A stretch of DNA of 39,545 nucleotides from a virus, in the UHGV virus genome UHGV-0207529; one strand, 5' to 3'. Positions within the stretch are counted from its first letter, which is position 1; every line of letters starts with the position of its first letter. Shown in pieces: positions 3,466 to 22,959 of the stretch. A model generated the notes under the pieces. The model did no database searches. It had not been told where the DNA came from and was given only the letters and a program-made list of their open reading frames with translations. The translations under genes and the position numbers were made by a program.

Positions 3466-5523
3466 ATGACAGACATTACAGCCAATGTTGTGGTAAGCAT
3501 GCCTTCGCAACTCTTCACTATGGCGCGTTCTTTTAAAGCCGTAGCTAATGGCAAAATTTATATCGGTAAAATTGACACTGACCCTGTAAATCCTGAAAAC
3601 CAGATTCAGGTTTATGTGGAAAACGAAGACTGTTCTCACGTTCCTGTTTCGCAACCAATCATCATTAACGCTGCTGGTTACCCTGTATATAACGGACAGA
3701 TTGCCAAATTCGTTACTGTACAGGGCCATTCTATGGCTGTTTATGATGCGTACGGTGTGCAGCAGTTCTATTTTCCGAATGTGCTGAAGTATGACCCGGA
3801 TCAGTTAAGACAAGAGTTAGCAACAGAGGGTAATGAAATACTTGTTGACGACTCCCGTATTGCAGTTAAAAGTGTTCATGTAAATTCAAAACTTAGAACA
3901 CAGCACAATAAAAACGCAGAAATAATCACGCCAAATGATTTTATATCAAATTATGACATGATATCTGCAGCTATTAACTCTGGAGAGAGTGCCGCAGTAT
4001 TTAATTCCAGGTATGCATTCACAATAACAGTTGGGGAATATGGTAATTTTAAATCTATTAGTGATGCTCTAAACTCAGCTGTTGCACTGCGTCCACTATG
4101 GAAAAATGGCATTGATTTTTGCATAATTAAAATTCTTTCCGGTTTTGTGCTCAATGAGCAAATAGAAATTTCAGCAGGATGTGACTTATCATGGATTAAA
4201 ATAATATCAGAAGACTCAGTGGTTTTCTCTGATACCAGTTTGTTTACTAAAACTGTTAGGACGTATTACGAATACAAATATTTATTTTACATTTGCGATG
4301 CAGCAAAAAGTCCTGTATTTGCTATTCAGATTGAAGAAAATAGAGATGATAGCGATGTTTGTGCATTTATTGTAACTCAAAAAGCTGAACTTAATTTCTA
4401 TCCGTATTCAGGTGCTCGAAAGTTCTACGTTGGAATTCATGGTAGCTTTGGTGCAAAAATTAGTGCATATCATACCGGATGTGCTCCTGATGAGGAAAGT
4501 GTTGCTGCATATATGCCAGAAGGGTATTACGTATGTGATTTTTCTTATAGCAGATACTCTTCCCTGCAACTGGTAAATAATGTCAAGGCATCAATGCCTG
4601 TAAGTAAGTTTGAACGGTGCACAGAGAGTACGGTTGCGTCAGTTAATTGTATTTATAATGTTAAAGCAGATTTTCAGGGGTCAAGTGCAAGCTATTGTTA
4701 TATAGGATGGAATGTAAGAGATGGTTCAAATGTTAATATACGCGACCATAAAACTATACATTGCTCATATCGTGGATTAACGTGCATTCATACAGCATAT
4801 GTTGATGCAAGACGACATGACGTTGAAGAAAGTGATGCAGAAACAAGTGGTAAAGTCCTTGAACCAAATATTGAAAAAGGTTTTTATGGATGTGCACTTG
4901 GTGTGCGTATTGATGGTGCGGGTTGTGTTGATGTTGCTGGTAATGATATGCGCAATTGTGGAACAGCCGTTAATGCAGACACTGGTGCTGTTATTTCCGG
5001 AAAGGCTGTAGATATCTCAGGGGTTGAGCTGGGATTTGATTGCCATGCAGGAGCATCTGTTAATTTTCCAAGGCTATGGGGTACAGATATAAAAAAATTA
5101 ATGCACCTCCAAGATGGTGTAAGGTTTAACTCTAATATTTGTCATGTATTTGGTGCAAATCCCACAAAAGATATTAGATGGATTGATGTAGAGAGATCTG
5201 AAGCTTCTTTTATGAATGCAACGCTGGATGCAGATTCAGGATTTATTGCTGACTGTGGTAGTAGGATAACCATTGAAGGAAGTAAAGTTAAAAACCAAAC
5301 AATAAGAAGTTTTTTTGGATCACATGTGGCTATAAATAATACTGTTGCTGACAGAACTTATTCAGATATAGCCGATGTTCCGCAGTTGACTATTAGTGGA
5401 GGATCTTTTATTTCTGCTACAGGATATTCTAATTCTGACTCCAGCCCTCTTAGGTTGAGCACAACACGAAATACACTTGGAGTTGGAGGAGCCATATTTT
5501 CAACCAATGGGGAAGTTTCATGA
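3466..5523 (+). CDS. Tailspike: P22 gp9-type N-terminal head-binding domain with a divergent receptor-binding domain
   Basis: N-terminus [34 protein letters not shown]...VLKYDPDQ matches the P22-family tailspike head-binding domain; the remaining ~570 aa are AT-rich and not P22-like. Confidence 0.9.
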
Positions 5524-5819
5524 TTAAGAGCATTGATGTCACTCCATTTCTTCACTCGCTTTGCGCTTTTGCGGCTCAGGTACTGGTTGGTATTTTTACC
5601 GGAAACTGGGCTTACGGTGCGATAGCCGGTTGTACGTTCTTCATTGCGCGTGAACACACCCAGGCAGAATATCGCTGGATAGAAAAGTTTGGGAAAGGGA
5701 AACGTGTCAACATGCCGTGGTGGGGAGGTTTTGATCCACGCGTGTGGGATGTGGGAAGTTTGTTGGATTTTTCTTTCCCAATTATCGGATGCTTATTGGT
5801 ATGGATTCTTGCATCGTAG
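5520..5819 (+). CDS. Small hydrophobic membrane protein (moron) coupled to the tailspike gene
   Basis: 99-aa ORF overlapping the tailspike stop (ATGA); several hydrophobic segments. Confidence 0.45.
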
Positions 5820-5910
5820 CGAACACATAATTACCGATGAGACAAAACTGAGACACACAAAGCTTTGCACTGGATTGCAAGGCTTTGTGCTCTTCGGTAT
5901 TTAAGGTGGG

Positions 5911-7068
5911 TTACTCCACCTTTTCATCAAGCCAGTCCGCCCACCACTGCATCATTTCTCTGCGCTTATCGAGATACTGAGCATGGTTGTAAATACCACG
6001 CACAGATCCGCCGTTGGCATGTGCCAGTTGCACTTCAATAGCGTCAGCAGGCCATTCGTGCTCGTTCATAATCGTGCTGAATTCATGCCTGAATCCGTGA
6101 CCGCTTTCCAGACCCTCATAGCCGATTTGTTTGATCACAAGCAGTACAGCGTTCTCGCAAATTGGCTTCTTCTTATCGTTGCGCCCGGCAAAAACAAATT
6201 CTGATACTGGTTTAGTGATGGAGCTTAGCGTAGTGAGAAGTTCAACCACCTGGTCTGACATCGGGACCACATGAATTTTGCGTCCCTTCATCACACTGGC
6301 GTCGATGGTGATAATCCTGTTTTCAAAATCGACGTTCTTCCATAGCATGGAACGAAGCTCTTTCGTTCTTAGGGCTGTGTAGCGTAAAACTTTGGTCGCA
6401 ATGAGCGATACGATACTTCCTGAAAATGTTGCCAGTGCTTTGTTGAATGCAGGGATCTGGTCTGCTGGAAGAAACGGGAAGTTCTTCTTGCGGTATCCTT
6501 TCATGGCGTCTGCAAGGTCAGGTGCCGGGTTATATTTAGCCCTTCCGGTGACAATAGCGTAACGGAAAACCTCGCCGCATCTTCTGCGGGCTTTGTTGGC
6601 TCGCTCCATTGCACCGCGATCTTCAAATCTGCGGATTACTTCCAGCAGTTGCATCGGCTCAATATCCTGAATCTCAAGACCGCCGATGATAGGTAAAATG
6701 TCGTCATCAAACATTTTTGCAAGTTCAGTTGCATATCCTACTGACCAGACTTGCTTCTTGTGCTCGTACCATTCCTTGTAAATCGCACTAAAGGAATTGT
6801 TGTTAGACGAAGCCTTTTTCGCTTTTACCGGATCGATGCCAACCGAGATGTCTTTCCTCGCAGTCCATGCTTTATCCCTTGCCTCCTGCAAAGTCATAAG
6901 TGGATATTTTCCGACGGTCAGGATTTTCTCCTTACCGTCAATCTTGTAGCGAAGCTGCCATACCTTTTTCCCTGACACAGGGACATAAAGGTACAGGCCA
7001 TTACCATCGAGAAGGCGGTATGGTTTTTCTTTCGGCTTTGCTGCTTCAATCTGCTTAACGGTGAGCAT
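5911..7068 (-). CDS. int: Tyrosine integrase, P4-like
   Basis: N-terminus IEAAKPKEKPYRLLDGNGLYLYV typical of P4-type integrases; C-terminal HGFRH and catalytic Tyr region (VRGIYNHAQYL). The track ORF extends to a GTG at 7104; the ATG at 7068 (MLTVKQ) is preferred. Confidence 0.85.
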   Translation of the reverse strand: MLTVKQIEAAKPKEKPYRLLDGNGLYLYVPVSGKKVWQLRYKIDGKEKILTVGKYPLMTLQEARDKAWTARKDISVGIDPVKAKKASSNNNSFSAIYKEWYEHKKQVWSVGYATELAKMFDDDILPIIGGLEIQDIEPMQLLEVIRRFEDRGAMERANKARRRCGEVFRYAIVTGRAKYNPAPDLADAMKGYRKKNFPFLPADQIPAFNKALATFSGSIVSLIATKVLRYTALRTKELRSMLWKNVDFENRIITIDASVMKGRKIHVVPMSDQVVELLTTLSSITKPVSEFVFAGRNDKKKPICENAVLLVIKQIGYEGLESGHGFRHEFSTIMNEHEWPADAIEVQLAHANGGSVRGIYNHAQYLDKRREMMQWWADWLDEKVE

Positions 7069-7323
7069 GGGTAAAAATCCGGTGGGTAAAATTATTTTAT
7101 CCACTTTTTACCCGTCATGGAGTGCGGCTGTCAACGATCTGACGCGAACCATTACGAACTGTTAATCTACGGAAGGCTTGATATTCAGGGGATTTTGCGG
7201 ACTGGTACGGATGGGAGCGAACTGATAAATGGTGTCCCCTGCAGACATCTACTTGAGGCGGCAGGGGATTGATTGGAATGGTGTTTTTTAGATGTGAAAA
7301 ATATTTTACCCGCTATTTTACCC
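7069..7323. repeat. Integrase arm-type site candidates (TTTTACCC / GGGTAAAA 8-mers)
   Basis: Five copies: GGGTAAAA at about 7069 and 7084, TTTTACCC at about 7106, 7304 and 7316, bracketing the core at 7230-7244. Confidence 0.5.
7230..7244 (-). other. attP core matching the 3' end of tRNA-Arg (argW)
   Basis: Minus-strand CTGCAGGGGACACCA matches the acceptor stem, discriminator and CCA end of E. coli argW as I recall it; flanked by arm-type repeats. Confidence 0.55.
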
Positions 7324-7518
7324 ATTGGCGCGGCTTAAGAGCTTATTTTTGAATTCACAATGGTCACGATATAACCATCTTGCTCGACCGTGGATAACTT
7401 TGGCTTTAGGCAGGTCGCCGGACTTAATCCGGTCGTAGATGAAGGTTTTACCAAAGCCAGTATCAGCCATGATGAATTTCAAATCAACCAGTGAATCAGG
7501 TTGTAGTTCGTGTTGCAT
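7318..7518 (-). CDS. AlpA-family excisionase/regulator
   Basis: 66 aa with the AlpA-like HTH pattern (TGFGKTFIYDRIKSGDLPKA...GRARW); GGAGA SD upstream. Confidence 0.65.
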   Translation of the reverse strand: MQHELQPDSLVDLKFIMADTGFGKTFIYDRIKSGDLPKAKVIHGRARWLYRDHCEFKNKLLSRANG

Positions 7519-7564
7519 GAGTGCTATCTCCGAATAGGGAATCGAACCTGCAAATCAGGCAATA

Positions 7565-7590
7565 AAAAACCGCATTGATGCGGCGATGGT
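7565..7590 (-). terminator. Rho-independent terminator (minus strand)
   Basis: Hairpin ccgcat-tga-tgcgg with a T-run on the minus strand. Confidence 0.45.
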
Positions 7591-22803: not shown

Positions 22804-22878
22804 GGGTCAGTCGTATAAAGGTCATTACGGAAGGCTGTTAACCTTCTTATCGTGGTTCGAGTCCACGCTGTCCCGCCA
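22804..22878 (+). tRNA. tRNA-Asn (GTT) candidate, non-canonical D-arm
   Basis: Hand-folded: T-arm cgtgg-TTCGAGT-ccacg, anticodon stem gaagg/ccttc with loop CTGTTAA, acceptor 6/7 paired, CCA end. Coordinates approximate. Confidence 0.45.
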
Positions 22879-22883
22879 AACAT

Positions 22884-22959
22884 GCTGGTTTAGCTCCAAT
22901 GGTAGAGCGGTCGCCTTGTAAGCGAATGGGTAGCGGTTCAAGTCCGTTAACCAGCACCA
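22884..22959 (+). tRNA. tRNA-Thr (TGT) candidate
   Basis: Hand-folded: acceptor gctggtt/aaccagc, D-arm TAGCTC...GGTAGAGC, anticodon loop CTTGTAA, T-loop TTCAAGT, CCA end. Coordinates approximate. Confidence 0.6.

Follow-up and report, generated by a model that had tools for sequence, protein, structure and literature searches.

The intergenic region 7069–7323 of the window (the whole stretch of DNA analyzed, 39,545 nucleotides) is almost certainly the attP site for the argW tRNA gene, part of the IntS/TorI recombination module common to KplE1 (CPS-53), HK620, Sf6, CUS-3, and Kapi1. It is flanked by a minus-strand gene on each side, int on the left and torI on the right. The window itself is the complete 39.5-kb genome of a mosaic, P22-like (Lederbergvirus) temperate coliphage. 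In the int-attP-xis segment, it shares 99.4% identity with phage HZ41 and approximately 96–97% with HK620, Sf6, IME10, N7, and others; of the first 25 kb of the window, only approximately 40% is covered by Sf101, HF4s, and HZ41, the best relatives overall. The finding of an attP site for argW is already known, the module having been mapped and biochemically tested in KplE1, HK620, and Sf6. For this phage the analysis fixes the annotation, with argW as the integration site, intS and torI as the prophage ends beside argW and dsdC, respectively, and a defined regulatory layout of int; beyond the correct annotation, its significance is small. The features of the region are listed below, with conservation in the Klebsiella phage vB_Kpn_Chronis (Chronis) where it was scored.

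5911–7068, minus strand: intS, integrase gene (385 aa), ATG at 7066–7068 and stop codon at 5911–5913
7069–7076, minus strand: Int arm-type site TTTTACCC, abutting the int ATG, inside HK620 attP repeat 1207–1232; 8/8 bases kept in Chronis
7084–7091, minus strand: Int arm-type site TTTTACCC, inside the same HK620 repeat 1207–1232; 7/8 bases kept in Chronis
7095–7102, plus strand: degenerate arm-type site TTTTATCC with one mismatch, inside HK620 attP repeat 1232–1253
7105–7134, minus strand: PintS promoter, -35 TTGACA at 7129–7134, 18-nt spacer, -10 TAAAAA at 7105–7110
7106–7113, plus strand: Int arm-type site P'1 TTTTACCC, overlapping the -10 of the int promoter; 8/8 bases kept in Chronis
7135–7159, minus strand: predicted TorI (RDF) binding block I5-I4-I3, GATCG at 7135–7139, GTTCG at 7145–7149, GTTCG at 7155–7159, 10-bp phasing
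7198–7222, minus strand: predicted TorI binding block I2-I1, GTCCG at 7198–7202 and GTTCG at 7218–7222, 20 bp start to start
7229–7244, minus strand: attP core (crossover region) CTGCAGGGGACACCAT, argW nt 61–75 plus one base
7304–7311, plus strand: P-arm Int arm-type site TTTTACCC, inside HK620 attP repeat 1441–1463
7316–7323, plus strand: P-arm Int arm-type site TTTTACCC, inside the same HK620 repeat 1441–1463, overlapping the torI stop codon
7318–7518, minus strand: torI (hkaC), recombination directionality factor (RDF, excisionase), 66 aa, stop codon at 7318–7320

The 15-mer CTGCAGGGGACACCA occurs in the window as a single copy on the minus strand (7230–7244), where none is expected by chance. 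It is identical at all 15 positions to the last 15 nt (nt 61–75) of the tRNA-Arg gene argW annotated in a K-12-lineage genome (GTCCTCTTAGTTAAATGGATATAACGAGCCCCTCCTAAGGGCTAATTGCAGGTTCGATTCCTGCAGGGGACACCA). In the preliminary description, the match had been given as the acceptor stem, discriminator, and CCA of argW. The match to the 3' end of the gene is real, and the alignment with the actual argW sequence (15/15 plus one flanking base) bears it out; the wording was slightly short, as four nucleotides of the T-stem precede the 7-nt acceptor strand, the discriminator, and the CCA. The identity with attB runs one base (the T after CCA) beyond the 15-mer, hence the 16-nt core at 7229–7244, which is exactly the published core of KplE1, HK620, and Sf6. 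KplE1 sits in argW and is bordered by this duplicated 16-nt sequence (PMC2951348). The attP core is also annotated in HK620 (AF335538) at 1368–1383 and in Sf6 (AF547987). The Kapi1 att site was reported to equal those of Sf6, HK620, and KplE1 save for one extra base, a 5' A (PMC8787464); the core is 16 nt long, and 17 nt where the host attB carries an A at the next position. As a separate observation, the phage carries tRNA genes of its own, tRNA-Asn(GTT) and tRNA-Thr(TGT), located 5 bp apart at 22804–22959 on the plus strand.

Both proteins of the module were found to be identical to their counterparts in E. coli K-12. The integrase matched IntS at 385 of 385 residues and contains the Pfam domains Arm-DNA-bind_3 (PF13356, 2e-25), Phage_int_M (PF22022, 6e-28), and Phage_integrase (PF00589, 5e-39). 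The product of the gene on the other side of the core, 74 bp away from it, matched the 'Tor inhibition protein' of PDB entry 1Z4H, the KplE1/CPS-53 excisionase, at 66 of 66 residues, and the annotations of the lysogens also name it torI. It had been called an AlpA-like excisionase. A small DNA-binding RDF it is, but membership in the AlpA family found no support in Pfam or NCBIfam: Phage_AlpA (PF05930) gave no match at E ≤ 0.01, the sole Pfam match was HTH_17 (E = 0.0079, 16.9 bits, below the 27-bit cut-off), and NCBIfam returned none. The protein is TorI. An additional 46-aa open reading frame on the minus strand (7185–7325) runs across the att core and has homologues in hkaB of HK620 and gene 17 of Sf6. 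It had no Pfam match, integration would split its reading frame, and it is probably not a real gene.

The identity of both IntS and TorI means that the experimental results obtained for KplE1 carry over directly. Purified IntS, TorI, and IHF turn attL and attR into attP in vitro, site mutagenesis has also been reported, and KplE1 and HK620 substrates were used to show the binding and recombination activity of the identical proteins (PMC2951348). An IntS orthologue, a TorI orthologue across the core, the 16-nt core, lysogens running from argW to dsdC, and the motif set place the window within the IntS/TorI module. The arm-binding and catalytic domains of the integrase, together with the above-chance repeats flanking the core, likewise assign the site to the heterobivalent (lambda Int-type) att sites.

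The octamer TTTTACCC was found seven times in the window versus 0.85 expected, a number reached in 0 of 100 shuffles, and the binomial probability that a given 255-bp stretch would hold at least five of the seven is approximately 2e-10. The five copies of 7069–7323 agree in position, orientation, and 12-bp spacing with their first description. The distance of 'about 120 bp on each side' of the core held for the int side, where the nearest copy is 116 bp away, but it is 60 bp on the xis side. The count of five also had to be extended by one, to six sites, the degenerate copy TTTTATCC at 7095–7102 (plus strand), 11 bp upstream of the P'1 copy at 7106–7113, having been overlooked. With the HK620-to-window offset of 5861, the attP repeats annotated in HK620 at 1207–1232, 1232–1253, and 1441–1463 fall at 7068–7093, 7093–7114, and 7302–7324 and correspond to three pairs of octamers; Sf6 carries the same core and repeat annotation. 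In KplE1, attL contains four IntS arm-type sites, P'1–P'4, with TAAA in every one (PMC2951348). By numbering carried over from KplE1, the degenerate copy at 7095–7102 is probably P'2, one of these four published P' sites, 7084–7091 probably corresponds to P'3, and 7069–7076 to P'4, again with probability rather than certainty. The P arm remains with torI in attR, as seen in K-12 and strain PCP07083.

The stretch from the core to int holds all five TorI sites along with the intS promoter. KplE1 attL has five TorI sites (GTTCG, GATCG, and GTCCG) in two blocks, with I1 and I2 separated by 12 nucleotides, 2 nt between the sites of the block of three, and a 63-bp offset between the blocks (PMC2951348). 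The spacings in the window, 20 bp in block one, 10 bp in block two, and 63 bp between them, equal the published ones. The KplE1 intS promoter has a mapped transcription start, -35 TTGACA, and -10 TAAAAA, the latter overlapped by P'1 (PMC2951348). The window promoter went unreported in a generic sigma-70 scan, because its -10 TAAAAA is without the final T that the scan requires. Thus, the four P' sites with TAAA, the five TorI sites in two blocks, and PintS within the P' arm are all present with the published spacing, a statement that concerns presence only. For IHF, the consensus scan (WATCAANNNNTTR) returned one-mismatch matches only, at 7098–7110 (plus strand), 7262–7274 (minus strand), and 7482–7494 (plus strand); these were the best consensus matches, and we claim no IHF site in the window.

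The location of P'1 over the -10 might suggest that the TTTTACCC repeats are merely operator or promoter elements for the autoregulation of int and not arm sites for recombination. The intS gene is indeed repressed by both IntS and TorI, the effect of IntS being approximately five-fold (PMC2951348). Nevertheless, two of the copies lie across the core, at least 190 bp from the promoter, and end up in attR once the phage is integrated, and the integrase carries the Arm-DNA-bind_3 domain. In the literature, too, the repeats count as intasome arm-type sites, and repression persists when P'2–P'4 are mutated singly (PMC2951348). We consider a purely regulatory role very improbable. The operator and arm-site roles are compatible and not mutually exclusive.

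The junctions of lysogens located the crossover. A 301-bp query across the site was compared with 5,426 complete E. coli genomes, of which 1,901 matched, and among the matches listed nearly all began on the int side, extended as far as query position 205 (window 7244), and passed from there into an annotated tRNA-Arg. In K-12, the 16-mer ATGGTGTCCCCTGCAG occurs twice, once at each end of KplE1. The left flank of the window matches K-12 attL (186/190) and not attR, and the right flank matches attR (107/110) and not attL; none of the differences, four in 190 in the P' arm and three in 110 in the P arm, falls within a named motif. The prophage of strain PCP07083 is complete and P22-like, its tailspike is that of the window, and its match to window 3466–7244 is unbroken. 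Its layout is dsdC – core (attR) – torI ... tailspike – intS – core (attL) – argW – yfdC, with exactly 16 bases duplicated and the core copies 39,405 bp apart. The empty attB (dsdC-argW-yfdC) rebuilt from the outer flanks in K-12 was found in natural genomes with 100% identity over 411 bp, and the contiguous empty site dsdC-argW-yfdC was present in 912 genomes.

The crossover region is therefore located within 7229–7244, and the integration product is yfdC-argW-attL-intS ... torI-attR-dsdC. The 3' end of argW is rebuilt on integration, since it lies within the core. In nearly all of the matches listed, in K-12, and in PCP07083, the breaks come exactly at the core and not beyond the 3' end of int, the outcome that would have spoken against the site as first described. 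Junctions and argW identity agree on an attP between int and the xis-like gene, and PCP07083 has the two genes at opposite prophage ends as foreseen, with intS facing argW and torI facing dsdC. Likewise, the 'P4-type' arrangement, with attP upstream of int, is the one described for this module (PMC2951348, PMC8787464). The sequenced Kapi1 junctions show the same picture, attP lying between int and xis and the two genes ending at opposite ends of the prophage (PMC8787464). No evidence contradicting the attP explanation was met.

An unrecombined attP was observed in 17 E. coli genomes. In E. coli no107 (NZ_CP075374.1, 1557767–1561067), it has gtrA-intS of one prophage on one side and torI of the following prophage on the other, a position that fits a tandem double lysogen at argW. 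Another such match lies on a 178,896-bp record of strain CDF6, in which tailspike, intS, and torI are contiguous.

A second fragment of argW was found close to the site. The 16-mer TTGCAGGTTCGATTCC, at 7538–7553 on the minus strand and 19 nt upstream of the torI start, is an exact copy of argW nt 46–61. Together with the core, it tiles argW nt 46–75 with a 1-nt overlap, in the same order and orientation, and the two pieces are 293 bp apart, an interval taken up exactly by torI together with the two P-arm sites. The 16-mer is kept in K-12 KplE1, HK620, and Sf6 and is absent from Chronis. In PCP07083, it forms a direct repeat with the copy inside argW at attL.

These properties, along with the CUS-3 record (CP000711), which labels this T-arm 16-mer 'attL core' and 'attR core' (loci L002 1870–1885 and L005 893–908; cf. 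L006 1829–2029), raise the question of whether TTGCAGGTTCGATTCC is the recombining core, with torI and 7229–7244 outside the att crossover. Such a possibility is even more improbable than the purely regulatory one, and the junction data refute it. In the CUS-3-like lysogen NU14, phage DNA runs past TTGCAGGTTCGATTCC and through torI to CTGCAGGGGACACCAT beside dsdC, and in PCP07083 and K-12 the window homology lies on both sides of 7229–7244 only. In HK620, Sf6, and the window alike, torI is located between the two argW pieces. Crossover in the T-arm 16-mer would, moreover, leave argW disrupted, whereas the empty site predicted from 7229–7244 was found exactly. The NU14 prophage reaches the true core; therefore, the CUS-3 deposit ends approximately 310 bp short of the real attR and is without torI. 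A by-product of the analysis is thus that the 'att core' labels of the CUS-3 GenBank record mark a different argW-like repeat and not the true core. The third placement, a lambda-type attP past the 3' end of int, in the interval between the tailspike region and int, with the upstream argW match as a relic, has the precedent of lambda and P22, whose attP is located downstream of int, but it has a vanishingly small probability. It was ruled out by the lysogens, whose match to the window runs unbroken from the tailspike gene across int (3466–7244) and stops only at 7244, and by the lack of any other argW-like sequence of at least 12 nt near the int 3' end.

With 7229–7244 as the core, the position of TTGCAGGTTCGATTCC still calls for an origin of its own. 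Simple integration, tandem lysogeny, and aberrant excision were considered and rejected, as none of them puts a T-arm piece beside torI. The split argW pieces might record the insertion of an RDF-plus-arm cassette into a longer ancestral tRNA-like attP, or the upstream piece might still be a secondary or regulatory site, though we regard this as a rather unlikely speculation. Neither the cassette-insertion nor the secondary-site idea was found in the accessible literature on the module. In HK620, TTGCAGGTTCGATTCC overlaps annotated 'pI / cII-binding' features. Immediately upstream of it, a terminator-like hairpin (7569–7584, minus strand) consists of GCCGCATCAATGCGGT followed by a T-run; the stem sequence at this place differs in HK620, Sf6, and K-12, which indicates a mosaic boundary.

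Comparison with the named systems places the window closest to those in which the module was tested. With KplE1 it shares 100% identical IntS and TorI, the same core, TorI pentamers with their spacing, and PintS hexamers, and P' and P arms identical at 186/190 and 107/110 positions, but KplE1 is a 10-kb defective remnant with attL and attR only, whereas the window has the joined attP in a complete 39.5-kb phage. HK620 and Sf6 have the same gene order, int-attP-hkaC/gene 18, and their annotated core and three repeats map onto the window sites; they differ by a handful of substitutions between motifs and in the mosaic segments of the tailspike and early region. The satellite phage P4 targets a different tRNA gene, leuX, unlike the argW used here. 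It resembles the window in the attP upstream of int, the int promoter within an att arm, and the repression of int by integrase and RDF, but its RDF, Vis, has been proposed to target int mRNA, whereas TorI is a DNA-binding protein (PMC2951348). With lambda, the common features are a heterobivalent tyrosine integrase, a short core flanked by arm sites, the presence of RDF sites on a single arm, and the IHF requirement (PMC2951348). The lambda attP, however, is situated downstream of int, with int and xis remaining together at a single end of the prophage. In the window, int and the RDF gene flank the core, the int-side arm carries the RDF sites, and int has a promoter of its own inside attP/attL.

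The mechanism of the window attP may be proposed from the protein and site identity with the tested KplE1 system. IntS would act as a heterobivalent tyrosine recombinase, its N-terminal arm-binding domain contacting the four TTTTACCC-type sites of the int-side arm and the two of the torI-side arm, so as to bridge arm and core. Its catalytic domain would exchange strands in the 16-nt core CTGCAGGGGACACCAT common to the argW 3' end. Excision would require TorI and IHF, with TorI predicted to occupy the five (G)(T/A)(T/C)CG pentamers I1–I5 in the interval from the core to the int promoter (PMC2951348). The promoter is inside the P' arm, so IntS bound at P'1 over the -10 and TorI bound at I4/I5 beside the -35 would also repress int (PMC2951348).

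Conservation of the motifs was seen in the more distant module of Chronis, approximately 77% identical to that of the window. With motifs defined on the E. coli sequence, 85 of 95 motif positions (arm sites, TorI sites, -35, and core) were kept, versus 106 of 160 other intergenic positions (Fisher p = 2e-5), which independently supports a constraint on these motifs. In the TorI blocks, 14 of 15 motif bases of I5-I4-I3 and all 10 of I2-I1 were retained. The homologous core in Chronis (locus L008, approximately 2097–2108) reads TGCAGGGGACAC followed by TTG and not by CA-T. Integration of Chronis at an E. coli-like argW would cost the tRNA gene its encoded CCA, or else the phage would use a different target in Klebsiella.
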